DNA of 51,131 bases, filler included, from Bipalium vagum (taxonomy: Eukaryota): NCBI GenBank assembly GCA_037834085.1. It is 3 parts of 3 records of this genome, joined end to end, with 100 filler letters (N's around TTAATTAATTAA, not from the genome) between each part and the next. Parts side by side here need not be neighbours in the genome. Positions count along the whole stretch, not along the records: positions 15,780 to 34,597 come from JBBMKC010017983.1; 2 more parts are not named here. One strand, given 5' to 3'. Both the position numbers and the translations under genes were made by a program. Shown one piece after another: positions 3,790-34,525 of the stretch. The first letter of the stretch is position 1, and every line of letters starts with the position of its first letter. Under the pieces are notes generated by a model. The model was not told the DNA's origin. It saw nothing but the letters and a program-made list of their open reading frames with translations, and did no database searches.

Positions 3790-4560
3790 CGGCAAATAAT
3801 TTGATTTTCTTGTATTAACAAAAGAAAAAGCTCCTGACAGTTACCGCATCATTTTGGAAACATAGTGAGCAAAAATTATCTGAAAAAACAAGTGAACGTT
3901 GGATCGCTAGATTTAAAAAATGAAACGTTCAATGTGTAAGACATTGAAAATCCAGGTCAATCGAAAAATTTTGAACATGTATATATTTGTAAGCACTGAT
4001 AAGCGAAGACCCACAAACTCAAATACAACTTACATGTTATCCAAAAAGCAATTTCTGATTGATTACAAGAAATGTGGAAGATTATAAAGGAAGAAAAAAC
4101 AATTTGTAAAATGCTGACGGGAAAACAAAAAAATCGTTTTTGAATTGTATCGTTATTAGAGACAAAATGAATGTATTTCTATAATCCAAAACAGAAAGTC
4201 TTAGTGCGACCAAGGTCAACCATTTTCATCGATTGTGAAGCACAATACTCATGAGAAGAAATTACTGTGAATTTAGTGACATCATAATGTTTTTGTACCA
4301 GGAGCTCTTGCAACCTGGTCAAACGATTACTGGTAACCGTTATCAACAACAGTTACATAATTGTTGCAAAGAAAACCGACCAGAACGAGATAAAAGACAC
4401 AGGAACGTCATTTTCTTGGCTGATAACACTAGACCTAATTTATATTCAAAACATGTAACAGAAACGCTGGATGTACTTGATTTGGACGTTATACTTCACC
4501 AACCGTATTCGCTATACATTGTTTCACATGATTATTACTTGTTTAGATTGAGATTTATAA
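3790..4560 (+). mobile_element. Degenerate mariner transposase, Mos1/mauritiana-like
   Basis: LSEKTSERWIARFK...ENPGQSKNFE at the N-terminus; YQELLQPGQTITGNRYQQQL, VIFLADN and LHQPYS...DYYLFR in ORF 4251-4574. Confidence 0.85.
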
Positions 4561-4579
4561 GGATATTTTGTTAAAGATA

Positions 4580-23699: not shown

Positions 23700-24670
23700 C
23701 AAAGCACGTTTTCAGAGCCTTTGAGAAACATAATTTAACGGAATACCTTTAAGAACATTATAAAGGACTTTGTACAAATTAAAATAGGATGCAGTCTTGA
23801 TAGAAGGAGAGAACGTGGAAGGCTCCGGAAATTAAGAAAAATAGATTGACCAAGACTCAGCCATCTTTCCATATCCTTTGATCTATCAAAAGAAAAGACA
23901 AATCATGAATTCATTAGCTTCCATCAAAATATGATATTAAATTAACTGTATCAATCTATTTTTTCAAAATTTGCTCCTAAGAAAATGTTAAATTTAATCT
24001 TGCAGTATAAAACCAATAGTCAAGTGGTGGGAGAAAAACAAGACAACAAGATGGTGAGACTCGATTTTAATAGATAAATGTCGATTTGAGCTGTAAGACA
24101 TGAAAGGAAGACGCTGGGCCTGTAGTAGACCTCAGGTTCCTGGTCCAAAATTTAAATCGTCAATAATTATATGGAGTGACAGCATGTGAATTCTAATTTT
24201 TCTAAAAGGCACAGTAAATAGCAAAATATATCAAATATTGACGAAAACTGAAGACTCACAATTTACTCTTCAACTGAAATCATTCATCTTTCATCATGAT
24301 TGTGCAACATCACATACCTCAAAATTCACCTATGATTGGTTACAGGAGAAGAAATGGACAGTATTTTCATGTCCAGAAAATTCCTCTACAGTTAATCCTA
24401 TTGAAAATCTTTCGGGACTAATGAAAAATAGAAAACCAAAACATGTGGATAATTTACAAATAATTATTCAAAAAAATTGGGATGACATCTCAATTACAAT
24501 TGTCAAGTCTTCAATTCAAAGTATTCCAACACGTTTTGAAAGCTGTATTGATAAAAATTGGAAACAAATTAAACAAATAATTAAAACATGAAATATTTAG
24601 AAAACTGTTTTTTCTTATTAATTAAAGTCTAACCATTTCACAAAACTTCCAAATTTTCTTGTGACAAATA
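23700..24670 (+). mobile_element. Intronic degenerate Tc1-like DD34E transposase
   Basis: ORF 24238-24591: FHHDCATSHTSK...NPIENL...KNWDDI...SIPTRFESCI, with 34 residues between D and E. Boundaries approximate. Confidence 0.85.
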
Positions 24671-24745
24671 TGATTTACTGATAGATAATCAATTTTAATG
24701 TTTATATAACAAAGACGTATATAACATAACGTTTTTATCATATAG

Positions 24746-24966
24746 AACACAGGTTTTCTCTTTTTCGTGCTCTCTGGCTGATTTGGGCCATGCTATTTGG
24801 AGCAGCTGTGAATGTGGATTCTCCAAGAGGCACAGCTAGCAGATTTCTTGGTTGTATTTGGGCTTTATTTGGCCTAGTTTTCCTTGCTAGTTATACTGCC
24901 AATCTTGCTGCATTTATGATAGCCAAAGAGGACCATCATGATTTGAAGGGTCTTAATGATTGGAGG
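24746..24966 (+). CDS. GRIN2: NMDA receptor GluN2-type subunit, M2 pore loop and M3 exon
   Basis: tatag|(E)[73 protein letters not shown]|gttatt; contains the SYTANLAAF gate motif. Confidence 0.96.
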
Positions 24967-25075
24967 GTTATTTTATACTTATTCACAAAGCATTTTCATT
25001 AATTTGAATTTTATTTTTTTTTTATAAAATATAATCTAAGACTATTTTTCCAATATAAAATCTGTTATCTTCCAG

Positions 25076-25869: not shown

Positions 25870-27515
25870 GTAAGCACTCTATCATTGTTTTTATTTCCAT
25901 TAACCCTTGATAAATAAAACTGTTTTCATTGAATGATAACAATAATTTAATTACTTTATACTTTATTTTAAAATAGAACAATAGATTATTTTTATATAGG
26001 AAGTGCTTTGTCCAGAATTATATGAAATATCCTGCTCATCGTTAATTATAATATTTTAGTTAAACATCATGATAATGTTTAAATTTGAAATAAATATTGA
26101 TTATTTCTGTGTGTTTATTGGGTATTTATAATTTTAAAAATTCCTTAAGAATCATTTTTAAAATAAAACCCGAAGAGAAACTTTCAATACTTTTCATAAA
26201 CAAAAATAAAACAGTACTATTTTATATTATTTATTTATTTATTAATAAAAATATTATTGAGAAATTAACAAATCTTAATGTAAGACAGTATTTTTATGGA
26301 TCAATAAAATTTTATTTTAATATCAAATTTTCTATGTTACTAAAATGTAGACTTAGACTTTTTTATTTCACATTAAAACAACATTATTGAGAAAAGTGAA
26401 AAGAGATCATTTTTCAATAATCGTTTTCATTTTTTTCAAATAAAGTAAAAATATTTTGTGAATGTTCATTATTTGATTGGAGACTTTTATGGATGACTTT
26501 TTTTTATTATTTTATTTATTTACACCCGCACTTTACTCACTTTACTCACTTTATCAACTATTAATATTTCTCAAAATACGTTCAATGGTTTAACTGATAG
26601 TCCAAATGTGGATTAAATTCATTATACTCGTAAATATCTTTTACTACCCAATAGTTGAACACGGATATCCTAACTTCAGTCTTTAAGAAAGCGGTAAGAC
26701 TTTCCATCTTTGATCAAAACGTGTTTTCCAAAACTACTCTTTTCTAATTATCAGTAATAAGGGTAAGAAACACAAAAGATACGAGTTATATTTTCCCTTG
26801 ACTTTTCTTTTACTCTTATTTCTGAGAAAACTAATAACTTAGATAACCTTCGTTTCTAAATAGCATAAAAATCACAGAAAATATCTGACCTTAATCAAAA
26901 AAATGTAAAAATATAATAAATTTAGTAATAATGATAAATATAAAAAATTGTATTTTATTTTTAAAAATATAATATGTGAAGGTATTAAATTGTCAATTGA
27001 TACTTGCTAATTAATTTAGAAATTGCAATTATTATTTCTCTAAATGAAAATGACATTTAAATATACTCATTTTCAATAAGAACCCACCACTAATTTTGTT
27101 AATGATTTGCAACGAAATTATTGCATCTGTTATTAAATCAATCTAATTTAATCAGATATCGATATTTGTGTGTGTGTGTTGTGCATCATTTAAATAGTTA
27201 AGTAAATAATGCGTAGAGGATAAGAAATCAACGTATTACATTTAAAAATATGACTGGAATAAGAAAACTACATTTTATCCAACTATAAGACTCCGAAAGA
27301 AGTCGAATAGTAGGACATCTTGAAGGTGAAATAAATTTCAGAGAAATCACCAGACATTTATGAAGAAATCATTCCACTATTTTACAGTCATGGAATACTT
27401 AGTGAGAGGAAGGTTTGCATCATGGTCAAAGTGGTATTGGAAAAAATCTATGCACCAAAGAGCGTGAAAATAGAAACTTTCATCTTTTAGCTGTCAGAGA
27501 CAGATTTATGCCGAC

Positions 27516-27629
27516 TGTTAGTTGAAAAGTATTCGGAGATACCGGGATTCGAATCCGGGACCTTCACATGCGTATGAACTGCTATGACCGCTGAGCTACA
27601 TCCCCGACTACTTTTCAATTTATCTAACA
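27516..27629 (-). mobile_element. tRNA-Ala-derived miniature element with TGTTAG...CTAACA termini and 5-bp TSD (copy 1)
   Basis: CCGAC|TGTTAGTTGAAAAGTATTC...GACTACTTTTCAATTTATCTAACA|CCGAC with a tRNA-like core. Confidence 0.85.
27534..27605 (-). pseudogene. tRNA-Ala(CGC)-like sequence, probably not a functional tRNA
   Basis: GGGGATGTAGCTCAGCGG...TTCATACGCATGTGAAGGTCCCGGATTCGAATCCCGGTATCTCC: Ala-type acceptor stem, A-box and B-box-like motifs, irregular anticodon arm. Confidence 0.75.
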
Positions 27630-30292
27630 CCGACCACAAAGATTAAAAAAAATTGGAATCTGAATCTTTAAAAAAAATGTCTCTCAGCACAAAATTTCGA
27701 AGACTGATTAGTATTGATCTACTTTTATACTTTCCAAAGTGATGTCCACCATTCATATGACATCGTTAAACTGCAAAAGCTTAACTTTTTTTGAGAAAGG
27801 CATTGGAATGTCGAATTAATTTGCACCATATTTAGTGGTTAATCATAATTTTTGAACATATCATCTATTGTTAAATTGTCTAATTTATAATTAATAATAG
27901 TTAAGAAAGTAACTGCTTTGTGTTTTATTTTAAAATATCTGTCTTTTATTGTCATAAATTACGTTTTATGTTTATATATATTTATATTTTGTTTTAAAAA
28001 TTTGTTATCACAAATACCCGTTGCTTTAATTCTAAGTGATGACTACATGAGTCCTACTTATTTCACAAATATTGTGATTGTAGGTCGGATGTTTTGTCTG
28101 ATCCACTTTATCATCATTATATTATTATTTCCCATAAGAGGTTCTGTGATGAAGAAACCCTTTAAAATGACTATTCAGAATTGTAAGGCTGTATTTCAAT
28201 AAAAACTCAAATCGATCAATTATTACCTGCTTTGCAAAAATAATTATTTACAATGAATATTTTTTTGATTAATAACATTTTTAAAAATATTATTCCTTTT
28301 ATTTAAAGAAAACTTTTCTTACATAAATAAAACATGATAATAATAATATTTAATTTCTTACATCTAATAATATAAATATTTTCATTTATAATGACTTGGG
28401 ATTACATTTCATTTATCACTTTTCTTAGCTTATGAATATTAATTAATTTAATTTTTAACAGTTCAGCGCAGTTCTACCGTTTCTTATTTTTCTAAACATC
28501 ATTCATTTTGACAATGGGGTAAAAAATAATTGAAAATAATTATTAAAATATTTGTTATTTACATAAAATAGCATATTATTCAAAAATTTAGTTGTAATTT
28601 TACATAACTTAAGCCTATGGGTAATCTAACCTTTAAAAATGAGTAAAATGATTGGTTGAATGTTATTAAAATTTAAATATTTTCAAGAAATTTTGTAAAG
28701 TATTCTTTGAAGTTTTTAGTTTTGTTTAAGTGCAGTGAGATGAGGAAATGCATATTGAAAATCTTTTTTTGAAATAAAAAATATATATTGTACTTGATCT
28801 TCATCAAATTCAACTGATACCAATTGTTAAAGATAATTTACCAAAAACTAGCAAAAACTGGCTACTATTTTCGAGTATTCAAAAAATTGTGGAACTTTTC
28901 ATTTAAGTTGTAATAAATAAAGGTAAAAAAATCAGTTTTATTTTAGAAATTTGTGAAAAAATTACGATACATTTTTTAAAAAAAATATTTTTGATTTTTT
29001 AATTTTGTTAGATTAATGAAAATGATCATTAATTTCTATTAAAATAAAACGTTTATTTTCTCTATAAACTTCAGAAACAAAACCCATTGTCTGAACATGA
29101 GTAATTAATTATCTTAATATTTCGTAAAAATATTAACTAAGAAAACTCTTGAACTCAATTTGATCCGATCTGACAATACATTTTTGAAACAATATTAGTT
29201 GGATCGATATACGGTTAAAACTTAATGAATAAACAACTAACGAATCAATGAAAGAATAAGTTTACTGATCTATGAAAATCAAAAATCTCTTTTGAGTTCT
29301 TATTTTGTTAATTTTCACGGGAGTTCTCTCAGCGCAAACAACTGAGCTGAATAGTTAATGAATTCTCCTTCAAAATTCTCCCTTCATCTTTTGTCTTTCC
29401 ATTTTCCTCAGCCTCTCCTTTTCCATTAGTTACTGGTTATAAGAATGATGATAAAATATTTAATATTTTTATTCAATAATAATGATAGTGAAAGCAAAAT
29501 TTAAATATCATTCATCATTGAATTGTGAAAACAAAATTAATCAATGTTCAATAATAATAATTATATTAACAATAACCATAATAAATAAATAATAATAATA
29601 ATAATAATAAAGAAGTGATAAAAAAATAAAATTAAAAATTCTTAACTTTAAAATCAAAATAAAAAAAAATTTTTTCACAATACCTCATAATGAAATCCTC
29701 TAAAGAATGATCAAATCATTGAAAATAAAAATTCTATTCAATATTTTTTTCGTTGACCCAAACTCAAATAATAGTACAATTTGAATGACTGCAAAAATAA
29801 TATTATTATAATAAAAGAATCGGAGAAGGATAGATAAAAATCGACATATTGATAAACAAGCACATATATACATACAGAAATCTTGTTCAATAAATAATCG
29901 ACTTTCTTTGCTAAAATATGCAACGAATATTAAAATTACCTTTCTCACCACAAATACTAAAATAAGTAACAAAAATAAAAATTGTTAAATCTATAATTCT
30001 CATTTCCAATTTCTTTCGACACAAAAGTAAATGCATGAGATTATTATTATAAAAACATTCCATAAATTGTAATCATAGTAATAATTTTCTAAATGCACAG
30101 AAAATGTCTCACGTTTAGTAATAGGTCATGGCCCGCTTAAATCGTGACCAAGAAATACAATCACAATCATTAAACATGTCAACACACGCTACTATGAACT
30201 GCCGAGAATTTTCGTCATGCTAGGAAATTGTCTTATAGCTGTCTTCCTCTGATCAAATCCAAAGACCCACAAGAAATAAATTTTGACCAATA

Positions 30293-31888
30293 CAGTCAAA
30301 CCTGCAAATAGTGAACACTGTAATTAGTGAACTTAATGTTTATTGAACAAAACTTTTGAAATTAAAAAAACCCTTAGTAAACATAGATATCGTTCGTTAA
30401 ATACGAGAATTATGGACAATAAACGCATTTTTTATAAAAAAATGTTACATCTCTTAGCAATTTGTTTAAATATTACCATCATTAATGAAAAAAATCAATT
30501 TAAAAATGAATAAAAATATCCCTTTCCAACAAAAACCAAAATTGGCAGTCAAATTGAAAAATGAAAAAGACCCAGAGAATGTTGCCTTCGCAGTATGAAA
30601 TATCTGTTAACGTGGTAAACAAATTAATTAATTTTGGTGGAAATGCCTTTAATATAGGAAACATAAAAATAAAACTTGATGTATTTTTAACTAAAACTAT
30701 TGATCGTATTCTCATTAAATGGTTTGTTATTATGAAAAATTAAAAGAATATGCCGAAAACGATTTCTTCAATTGTGACAAGATTATTTTTAAGCAGACAT
30801 ACAAGTTCATATATTTGTTCTACTGGAAATAAGGCAAGTGGAAAATTTTCAAAAGAAAGATTTAAAGAAAAAATAAAACCACTACTTATTGGAAAGTCAG
30901 CAAATCCTAATTGCTTCAAAGGAATCAAAAAACAAAATATCCGTGTTTATTATAAAAATCAGAAAAGATGGATGACTTTAGGTATTTTCAATGAATGGTT
31001 TGCAAAATTTAATGCTGAGACGAAATCTAAACAAAGAAAAAATTTATTATTAAACAATGCAACTGTGCATCCTAAAGGTATTATGCTATTTAATGTTGAA
31101 ATTATTTTCTTACCACAAATTAAAGTTCTTTGATACAACCATTAGACAAAGGTATCATAAAGATATAAATTATATATAGATAGATATATATAAACAATAT
31201 TTATAAAAATTTGTATCATTTCAAGTGGATTGTAAACAGAAATTGATACAAGACGATTTGTTGAAAAATATCAATATTTACAGGGCTGTTATGTGGATCT
31301 CGAAATCTTGGGCGAACGTTTCTATTGATTGCATGAAAATTTTTTCAAGAAATCTTATTAAAATGCAATGATAACCTTAATTGGCGATATTAGAGTGAAG
31401 GTAGAAATCGAAGGAAAAATCATTTACTGGTTACAAAATATTATATTCAGTTTATAAATAGAATTCAATTATAATAATGACTGTTTCTGAAAACAGTAAT
31501 AGTGAAGAAAATAAGGAAATGTACATGAAATTATTAAGGTACTCATTATATTTGTATTAAACGTTTAGAGAAGTATTTTATACAAAATGTTAACCAGAGA
31601 AATTAATAGAATATGTGAAATAGAAAATATTATTTTAACAGAAAAGATAAAAAGACGGCCAGAAATAACAAATTCTCTGACAAAAAAATTGATATTTGAT
31701 TCGTTTATTGGTTTATTTTATGACGCACATCACATATACATCACATATATATTATTGTAAATAATAATATTGATTTGCATTTTTTTATTGGTTAAACATT
31801 AAACCAATAAATTTGTTTTATTCACTAAATGTCATTAATGAAAGAGGTTTTATAAAAATTCAAGTGTTCACTAATTACGAGTTTGAAA
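30293..31888 (+). mobile_element. Degenerate pogo/Tigger-like DNA transposon (DDE_1 transposase)
   Basis: TA|CAGTCAAACCTGCAAATAGTGAACAC ... GTGTTCACTAATTACGAGTTTGA inverted ends. ORF 30750-31133 has GKFSKER, KPLLIGKSANPNCFK, WMT..F.EW and FLP, followed by IQPLDKGII. Confidence 0.9.
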
Positions 31889-32661
31889 TATGAAGTTCAT
31901 TAGTTCAATCTAAAAAAATATTAAATGTTATTTGACATTTCATAATCATGCTTAGAAATAAAATCAATAATACCTCCAAAACATTGAGAATTCGGATTTG
32001 AAGTAGAATCTTAATATGACTAGTAATTATGTGCATCTTGTCATGATTCACTTGAAAGATGTCTTCAGAAACATTACATGCTGAAAATCTTTCAGTTAGT
32101 AATTATATTCTCAAAAATGTTTTAAAATTGTTATAAATATTTGGTATATTTAAGAATGTAGAGTTTCATGTTTGTTTCCATACAACGATAAATAGTCTGT
32201 TCTGAGGGCTCAGAGTCATAAAATTGAATTTACTTCAATTTTCAAGTGTAAGAAGACATTTCTCAGTATATTCTTCTCAAACATGATTGACATTAAGTCT
32301 TGATAGTATTTAATAAAAGCGATCCATAACATTAAATAACACTTGAGACTTGTTAAATAATTTCAATTAAAAATATGTTATAATTTGGATTAAGAATTAT
32401 TTGTGTATCAAATAAATTTTTTATTTATATGTAACGTTTTACCAAGAAAATTGGAAAAACTAGTCATGAACAAAAAGATTCATTAGTATTGACATTTTTA
32501 TGAATTCAAATGGCAAGCAGCCATAAATTATTACATGGAGGCCATCAAAATTTGAAGTCCTTTAGAGGGTTTCACCAATTATACTCATATACAGTTCAAT
32601 ATAAAAAGCATTTAAATGAACTTAAAAAAAAGATTTTGTTGATATCGCAGCTACTAATAAT

Positions 32662-32776
32662 TGTTAGTCCAAAATTAATCGGAGATACCGGGATTCGAAC
32701 CGGAGACTTTCACATGCGCATGGACTGCTCTGACTGCTGAGCTATATCCTCAGACTAATTTTCAATTTATCTCACA
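32662..32776 (-). mobile_element. tRNA-Ala-derived miniature element with TGTTAG...CTCACA termini and 5-bp TSD (copy 2)
   Basis: ATAAT|TGTTAGTCCAAAATTAATCGGAGATACCGGGATTCGAACC...GACTAATTTTCAATTTATCTCACA|ATAAT; colinear with copy 1. Confidence 0.85.
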
Positions 32777-34525
32777 ATAATAATAAATACAAACATACTT
32801 AACATTTTATAATTAATAAGTTAATCATTAACAATTACGGTTTTTAAATTTGTTCATTTTTATAATTGGTGTTAAAACAAGATTTAAAGACTCAGTTAAT
32901 AATCAGATGTTTATATAAACCGATTAAAATTAATTAAAATAATTAATTAATTTTATTTTGCAAATATAAATGAGAGATCTAACATAAAAATTCTAACATT
33001 GTCAGAATTAAAACAATTACGTGTAGAAATAATGGGGCTTTTTCAATTTGTAAAAATTTCGAAATAATTTTTAAATAAATATATTTATTTTAATAATTAA
33101 TTTAGTAAAAATAGTTTTATAAATTAAATTAATTGACTTGACCCAAAAAAAGACATTATCATGAATGCTGTTTCTTTGTAAGAAATGATTAGGAAAAAAT
33201 AATATAATAAAATTAAGATTACCTGAAGGAAAATCATTAGTAGTACTATAAAAATAATTTTATTTATATATATCTATTAATATAATAATTCAATATTATT
33301 AATATTTAATGATTTTATTTGCAAAGATTTTTGTATATGGATCTTTCAATTCTGATTTTGAATTACATGAATCTATGTTAGCAAAGTGTTGGAGTTTTAT
33401 TTATCAATGTCGTCCCTCTTGTTATGTATGGTTTATTACCTAGTCTTACTTTATTCAATGAAAAAGTAATAAGCTTTTTGAGGTCACTACCAAGCCCAAA
33501 ATTCAAATAATAGCCTGACACATTCTATTATCATGGGAACCAAACACAAATAGGTTTCGTGTTTTGGTTTTTATTCAAGTGTTTTCTACTTGCGTCAGGT
33601 GCTGCTACATTGCTTTCATCAATATATATGCTTAAGTACATAAAAATATCGCAGTGCGTCCTATTTGCTGACAAATAACGTAATTGAAAGTAAATAGACA
33701 AAATTTTAAATGGAATTTATTTACCAAATCATTTAATTACATAAACCCTTCTGTGTTTTTTTAAGATCATGTCCTAATAGCTTTCCTATGGACTTGTTCT
33801 GAACAGACTGAGATCTATGCCCAATTCTTGGAGTAAAATATGCTTACCTCCACAGGACTAAAATCAAAAATTATGCTTTAACTAAATAGAAGAAAGTAAA
33901 TAATACTTGAGCAAAAATGACAACGTAGTAAAAAGGTGTAACTGAAAAACTTTTCTTGTAAAATATCTCAAACAAATCTTGTGTTAAGTTTGATTAATTG
34001 ATTTTTGTTTGATTCTAAAACATTTAACCCCACAACGAAGTGTTAATGGAATGGGGGTAATTTTAAAGAATCTTGCTGGTATTAGTTTAATAATTTCGCA
34101 ATATTCTTCTTATAGTCGTTGGTATTATAATTTTATTTACCCATTATTAACATTATTCCAGGAAATAATTATTAAATCGAAATGAACCATTTTGGGTTTA
34201 TATACATTTTTAAATTATTAAGAAATAAAACTATCTAATGACAAAACATTTTATTAATTTGAACTTGTTACACTTATTATATTTTTATTATCTTTTTTAA
34301 TTAATTTTTTATAATTTCTCTTTATATTCAGTTTATAATCACGAGTCTGAATTATAATCGTTACAATAAATTCTAATATTCATCTAAGTGTCACTTTATT
34401 TTCACTTAAAACTATGACGAATTGAAATATTAAAAATAAAATACAAAAAAAATATTTTATATAATAAAGTAAAGTAGATTTAAATACACTTAGACAATAT
34501 GTAATTACTTATGTATTATGTATTA

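Follow-up and report, generated by a model that had tools for sequence, protein, structure and literature searches.

A short Helenus-type retroelement with a tRNA-Ala-derived core, 5-bp target-site duplications and a candidate Gypsy helper in a Bipalium vagum genome assembly

Described tRNA- and 5S-containing TRIMs and the present element

The tRNA-containing TRIMs ('TRIMp3') have been described as Helenus, with sizes of 311-1263 bp and several proposed origins (Kojima 2024, PMC10886601). All 113 of the 113 animal Helenus families with a value for the target-site duplication (TSD) in Table S1 of that work give 4 bp; a Gypsy helper was proposed there for animal Helenus, and a 5-bp TSD was paired with Copia (PMC10886601). 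Ajax (PMC10886601) resembles the element described here in being an animal TRIM with a small-RNA promoter in its LTR and a 5-bp TSD; however, the core of Ajax and of Cassandra is 5S-derived (PMC10886601; PMC7215508), whereas here it is derived from tRNA-Ala. For Cassandra, which also has a small-RNA promoter in its LTR, a predicted RNA fold has the LTR halves close the internal part, as predicted here, and transcription in its tandem arrays runs through the LTRs (PMC7215508). Among flatworms, the ta-TRIM of taeniid tapeworms is likewise a TRIM with abundant solo LTRs, and its helper, lennie, was argued for via a common LTR start, primer-binding site (PBS) as well as TSD length, which is the logic used below (Koziol 2015, PMC4558846, accessible text). 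It differs in having 198-bp LTRs, a tRNA-Leu PBS and mostly 4-bp TSDs, and that accessible text mentions no tRNA core (PMC4558846).

The element analyzed here is a Helenus element by the definition of Kojima (2024, PMC10886601), the comparison being by description. Shared with Helenus are two short LTRs, a tRNA-like core with boxes A and B on the element strand, a PBS, a polypurine tract (PPT), the non-coding character, many TSD-flanked solo LTRs, pseudo-tRNA calls and a size within the range (here ~360 bp). The differences are the following. First, the TSD is 5 bp here (none of 67 pooled end pairs gives 4 bp), as opposed to the 4 bp of the animal families. Second, the host is likely a flatworm, a phylum absent from Tables 1 and S1 of PMC10886601. 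Third, the PBS matches tRNA-Arg(ACG), and a motif search of the whole supplement of PMC10886601 found its first 8 bases nowhere. Fourth, a likely Gypsy helper goes here with a 5-bp TSD, in contrast to the published pairing of 5 bp with Copia. A literature search returned no prior flatworm report of such a TRIM; Repbase, Dfam and the supplements of planarian genome papers may contain the family.

The window copies and their two-LTR relatives

The window is the whole stretch of 51,131 nucleotides that was analyzed, from an AT-rich genome of 441 Mb; it joins three parts, and the middle part contains both copies. The initial annotation had placed in it a second, independently inserted 115-bp copy of a tRNA-derived element between ATAAT repeats, and these limits proved correct to the base: the unit (TGTTAG...CTCACA) occupies 32662-32776 and is framed by ATAAT direct repeats. 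It lies on the same contig and in the same orientation as copy 1 at a start-to-start distance of 5146 bp, close to the 5.1 kb first given, and the scattered substitutions reported between the two leave 98 of 114 aligned bases identical (86%). Their flanks, said to be unrelated, yielded one weak match only in a local BLAST against the loci collected up to that point. We rejected a resemblance, seen by eye, of the left flank of copy 2 to the LTR end of another family, as BLAST did not recover it. The right arm is indeed longer by the 5 nt TTTAT in both copies. The features of the two copies, and a nearby exon that helps to place the host, are:

27511..27515, no strand: left TSD of copy 1, CCGAC, with its right partner CCGAC at 27630-27634
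27516..27629, minus: copy 1, almost certainly a solo LTR, 114 bp, TGTTAG...CTAACA, with the tRNA core at 27534-27605
32657..32661, no strand: left TSD of copy 2, ATAAT, from the sequence and the family-wide 5-bp TSD
32662..32776, minus (sense strand minus): copy 2, almost certainly a solo LTR, 115 bp, TG...CA, of TRIM family A; the same unit borders PBS, internal part and PPT in full elements, e.g., L029 and L042
32766..32770, plus: TTTAT, the 5-nt asymmetry, a spacer that at the U3 end separates the inner stem from the 6-bp terminal motif, from the sequence
32777..32781, no strand: right TSD of copy 2, ATAAT, from the sequence
24730..25002, plus: NMDA-receptor NR2-like exon (PF00060) in the neighborhood of the copies

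The best-scoring named matches of the NR2-like exon are flatworm proteins (79-84% identity), with molluscs and annelids at 66-77%, which makes a flatworm the likely host. Pfam matches of mariner, Tc1 and pogo type mark remnants of DNA transposases at window positions 4239-4574, 24190-24591 and 30744-31133, and the old dispersed repeat that hosts copy 1 is in the region 27150-27900.

Several of the top LTR matches in the genome lacked a TSD and were joined instead to one common sequence. These joints belong to full elements with the layout LTR, 18-nt tRNA-Arg(ACG) primer site, ~131 bp, PPT and LTR, ~360 bp in all; in L029 and L014 this entire series is enclosed by one 5-bp TSD. The 16 full elements with both outer ends called measure 267-362 bp, are non-coding, have TG..CA LTR ends and an internal part of 128-132 bp, and carry an exact 5-bp TSD in 13 cases and a 4-bp one in none. 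A genome query with the internal part returned 707 first-look candidates. Since the same unit brackets PBS, internal part and PPT in these full elements elsewhere in the genome, the window copies are almost certainly solo LTRs of a TRIM and not stand-alone elements. The tRNA derivation proposed at the outset thus stands for the core, which comes from tRNA-Ala, but what had been taken for the whole element is the solo LTR of a two-LTR TRIM. We regard this structure, with its PBS, PPT and 5-bp TSD, as very probable.

The PBS abuts the 5' LTR, with 210 exact junctions of LTR end and PBS genome-wide and none for the reversed control, and the PPT abuts the 3' LTR in the full elements. The G variant of the PBS is complementary to tRNA-Arg(ACG)+CCA at 18 of 18 bases, and the genomic tRNA-Arg(ACG) genes end in the PBS-complementary bases without CCA. 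Of the first 100 junctions listed, 74 carry A at PBS position 11 and the other 26 carry G. The A is also seen in several unrelated families, and the CCA-less tRNA-Arg genes that were found predict G; an unassembled isodecoder or CpG decay may account for the A. At five loci (L061, L062, L063, L067 and L068), a CCA-ended tRNA-Arg(ACG) is fused to an LTR end and extends past the 18 nt, with stretches that range from ~30 nt to almost the entire tRNA; these are right LTR ends and belong to other LTR families that share the primer, not to family A. Such fusions, as fossils of primer read-through, show that tRNA-Arg(ACG) has been copied by a reverse transcriptase (RT) in this genome. ARAGORN reads one of them, L063, as a tRNA-Arg gene.

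LTR identity within an element has a median of 96.6%, compared with 94.6% between elements (P=0.03), and the own partner is the best match in 5 of 10 elements, making this a weak discriminator; the modest excess agrees with a spread that lies some time back and started from few masters. A sister family, B, has a 118-bp LTR, an internal part of ~144 bp, the same primer and a tRNA-Ala core, with an exact 5-bp TSD in two of the three complete elements seen. It includes a ~195-bp element (L098/L157) in which both LTRs are cut to 27 bp, without the tRNA core, between exact 5-bp TSDs. An identical deletion at both ends is expected if both LTRs were rebuilt from one template, and this element is shorter than the 292-bp SMARTs cited in PMC10886601. 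We also observed that most full elements have an internal deletion in at least one LTR (L014, L035, L038, L047, L057, L193, L213), that in L046, L134 and L136 the PPT is fused straight to the tRNA head via a common short G-rich motif, and that the primer site recurs after the 3' LTR in L050, L133, L149 and L156, the last resembling a tandem array whose internal part has diverged.

The inference of a high copy number from two copies in 51 kb was borne out: a 21-mer of the family A LTR has 1026 exact matches genome-wide (reversed control 0), which is a lower bound for the number of LTRs, as neither window copy contains it; the LTR query itself gave 1896 first-look candidates. Read depth over the element is thousands of times that of the flanks in one sequencing run, a figure that is not a copy number. 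Among the joints listed from the same run (15 of 114), none skips copy 1 or copy 2 at window positions 26800-33600.

Boundaries and a 5-bp TSD had further been claimed as properties of the family, and they reproduce. Of 28 end pairs among the top LTR matches, 20 show an exact 5-bp TSD. To reduce bias, a sample was drawn from the first 60 LTR places in contig order, of which 31 dropped out because both ends were not callable; of the remaining 29 pairs, two of which (L160, L162) are not outer ends, 15 have an exact 5-bp TSD, 23 have at most one mismatch and none has a 4-bp TSD. Pooled, 44 of 67 end pairs are exact, a conservative count because a few spurious pairings (L024, L038, L217) are included. 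Swapped left and right flanks agree at 5 bp in only 0.74% of 812 pairs; hence matches of the ATAAT or CCGAC type are not due to chance, an option that had been named as a possible refutation. The duplicated sites of family A show the bias R-T-N-A-Y (first base purine in 32 of 44, last base pyrimidine in 34 of 44). Copy 1 offers a direct view of the insertion: it sits in the old dispersed repeat, other copies of which hold CCGAC once. The element is present in 0 of 29 paralogs of this repeat (paralogous empty sites), and 7 of the 29 align the right flank at the exact offset predicted by a 5-bp duplication.

A candidate Gypsy helper and the origin of the solo LTRs

The cis signals of the TRIM recur in a coding LTR family of the same genome, family C. 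Its 302-322-bp LTRs share their last 8 bases with family A and their first 8 with family B; its PPT is near-identical to that of the TRIM; at its primer junction TGGCGA abuts the LTR with zero gap; its TSD is an exact 5 bp in 13 of 20 cases and 4 bp in none; and its target bias is R-T-N-A-Y as in family A (first purine 9/13, last pyrimidine 11/13). Family C has gag, RT and RNase H frames, with RVT_1 and RT_RNaseH domains and a weak zf-CCHC in gag (E 0.003). The integrase stretch is broken in the copy read and has no Pfam match there, and in the relatives at 60-79% identity the RT, RNase H and integrase domains are of the families that characterize Gypsy. Those closest relatives of the RT (L256:153-770) are nearly all unnamed proteins on environmental contigs of 2-10 kb, and named animal proteins match it at 34-40%. 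The own PBS of family C fits the tRNA over only ~6 nt in four gag-linked copies. We consider a Gypsy family of the family C group the probable helper, and family C itself about an even bet. A directed search for helpers with the PPT pattern gave 27 new loci, all of them TRIM copies from family A or B except for one unrelated site, and no complete element was present on the contigs surrounding 12 other PBS carriers. A further Gypsy element, degenerate, lies directly downstream of an adaptin beta-like coding region recognized by eye (L221:740-2587).

The most durable alternative keeps the same TRIM and assigns its mobilization to BEL, Copia or another Gypsy family. BEL elements make 5-bp TSDs. 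A 5-bp TSD fits them as well as Copia, with which 5-bp Helenus has been linked (PMC10886601). The internal part of the TRIM shows no BLAST similarity to the tested internal ends of family C, and two other coding LTR families, D and E, use the same PBS as the TRIM. On the other hand, wherever a domain is readable in the coding families on this PBS or PPT, it is a Gypsy-type RT or RNase H, and family C agrees with the TRIM in five cis features. We therefore give this alternative perhaps one part in several of our belief, well behind a helper from the family C group.

A second alternative, which we find unlikely, also accepts the TRIM and makes many of its solo LTRs direct integrase products of LTR-only or otherwise aberrant cDNA instead of remnants of recombination. 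The genome contains many LTR ends with a partial PBS followed by unrelated DNA, and one copy of family C (L254) consists of LTR, PBS and a repeated LTR end inside a 5-bp TSD, a structure indicating that aberrant cDNA does get integrated. Nevertheless, TSD-flanked solo LTRs are the expected outcome of LTR-LTR recombination (Kojima 2024, PMC10886601, section 3.2). As an observation in its own right, L104-L122, L254, L073 and L050 show an LTR that continues into just 6-18 nt of the primer site, in some cases into a second LTR end as well, and then unrelated DNA; such ends look like integrated plus-strand strong-stop products, with the proviso that the query had selected for them.

The tRNA-Ala-derived core, its extended stem and the proposed replication

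On the minus strand, the LTR of copy 2 carries the following parts:

32668..32682, minus: trailer-side arm with a candidate Pol III terminator; the LTR has a single T4 run, at 32671-32674, and the trailer of the tRNA-Ala gene is similar
32680..32751, minus: tRNA-Ala-derived core, with acceptor, D and T arms recognizable and the anticodon stem broken, from Rfam RF00005 and alignment to tRNA-Ala(TGC) L101
32691..32701, minus: motif of Pol III box B, intact; putative function
32713..32722, no strand: perfect palindrome of 10 nt that replaces the anticodon arm, common to families A and B; candidate signal for RNA dimerization
32733..32744, minus: motif like Pol III box A, with one of two G changed; putative function
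32751..32765, minus: U3-side arm that lengthens the acceptor stem by ~14 bp, from pair counts on 75 LTRs and the fold

The core aligns to the genomic tRNA-Ala(TGC) gene L101, trailer and T4 included; L101 is the one gene among three matches of a looser search pattern, the first pattern having had 0 matches. With RF00005, the core of copy 2 scores 28.0 bits, below the gathering threshold of 29, and that of copy 1 (minus strand) 34.6 bits, above it. Box B of copy 1 has one change; thus, each window copy is altered in one promoter box. Across the family, the acceptor stem is preserved along with boxes A and B, and the anticodon stem is disrupted. Neither of the two window copies is a tRNA according to ARAGORN, whose 18 calls on 59 loci are 17 of undetermined type and one Ala(cgc). 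The suspicion that the family inflates tRNA-Ala predictions is accordingly weakly supported: it would be pseudo or undetermined calls that are inflated, more than Ala calls.

The ~14-bp U3/trailer stem and the 10-nt palindrome are common to families A and B and are not in the tRNA-Ala gene L101; in family B, a different sequence pairs in the stem. Over 75 LTRs, the non-standard pairs on the tRNA strand comprise 92 G-U against 18 A-C cells, mostly in two columns, a composition that fits an RNA stem, and the U3/trailer duplex gives -20.0 vs -12.7 kcal/mol. The internal part folds no better than its shuffles (z 0.42). By eye, the flanks of the LTR of the oyster element Helenus-3_CVi (supplement of PMC10886601) also pair around the tRNA, T run included, and a U3/trailer stem may be general in Helenus.

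These features bear on what the 115-bp unit is. Were it the whole of a tRNA-cored MITE, moved by a DNA transposase acting on inverted arms, one would expect the inverted arms and the TSD of fixed length that are indeed found, and stand-alone copies do prevail (44 of 60 contig-order loci lack the internal part). However, the unit brackets a cassette of PBS, internal part and PPT, as the 707 candidates and the 210 exact junctions attest, and one TSD encloses the whole two-LTR unit. Moreover, the long arms lie inside the unit with an offset of 5 nt, and their non-standard pairs are of the G-U type just described; the terminal repeat comprises only 6 imperfect bases. The arms first noted are thus real, yet they consist of short TG..CA ends plus the inner U3/trailer stem and are not transposon TIRs, and we hold a MITE to be highly improbable. 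Still less credit goes to a tRNA-derived SINE that integrated through target-primed reverse transcription: the tRNA head with A and B boxes would suit it, but there is no tail, the TG..CA ends and the 5-bp TSD are both fixed, and full elements contain PBS and PPT. Insertion of a SINE or a pre-tRNA into an ancestral LTR is a possible origin of the core. Equally far-fetched is the notion of functional tRNA-Ala genes that a mobile element has dispersed, since the Rfam pass of copy 1 and the kept acceptor stem (with a compensatory pair in family B, by eye) are outweighed by the broken anticodon stem, the 17 of 18 calls of undetermined type and folding z-scores of -0.10 and 0.31 against -1.96 for the real tRNA-Ala gene; the core is dead and unlikely to be a working tRNA.

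Taken together, the unit is, in our judgment very likely, a solo LTR of a ~360-bp non-coding Helenus-type TRIM that likely uses its tRNA-Ala-derived core as an internal promoter for Pol III and was likely mobilized by co-resident Ty3/Gypsy enzymes. We regard the promoter role of the core as probable. Reverse transcription from a tRNA primer and a PPT, followed by integration, is established chemistry of LTR elements. In the proposed cycle, Pol III would start at the tRNA 5' end within the 5' LTR, read partly through the T4 of that LTR, cross the T4-free internal part and stop in the 3' LTR. Gypsy Gag would package the TRIM RNA, tRNA-Arg would prime reverse transcription and the cDNA would then integrate. 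Later LTR-LTR recombination would leave a solo LTR with its TSD intact, as in both window copies. On the sense strand, none of the 16 internal parts contains TTTT, compared with 336 of the 384 window bins; the purine-rich make-up of the internal part (16% T) confounds this comparison.

A transcript starting at the tRNA has no U3 arm at its head, so that local formation of the long stem would be confined to the 3' LTR, the other option being a stem across the LTRs; predicted RNA folding favors the cross-LTR form. In human cells, Pol III termination increases when there is structure close to a short U tract (bioRxiv 10.1101/2020.09.11.294140), and on this ground 3'-biased stopping is plausible, with the difference from that assay that the T4 lies here inside the stem. 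We tentatively go one step further, to a view that we think could well be wrong: this may be the first Helenus lineage from animals to combine 5-bp duplications with a named Gypsy helper, and its LTR may have made the tRNA a replication device. The U3 arm would pair with the T4-bearing trailer such that stopping is favored in the 3' and not the 5' LTR; pairing across the LTRs would give a circle-like hairpin for strand transfer; and the palindrome of the anticodon arm would dimerize the RNA for packaging, both features being kept in two diverged families.

The Helenus-type TRIM as such was already known; new here are the likely phylum, the 5-bp TSD, the primer and the candidate helper. The element extends tRNA-promoter TRIMs to a likely new phylum and breaks the published rule of 4-bp duplications in animal Helenus. 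Animal TRIMp3 have so far been without a well-supported helper, and the candidate proposed here matches in five cis signals. In this genome, more than 1000 pseudo-tRNA loci need masking. With ~360 bp and two diverged families, the element offers a compact model of how a full-length RNA may arise when each LTR has the same terminator for Pol III.
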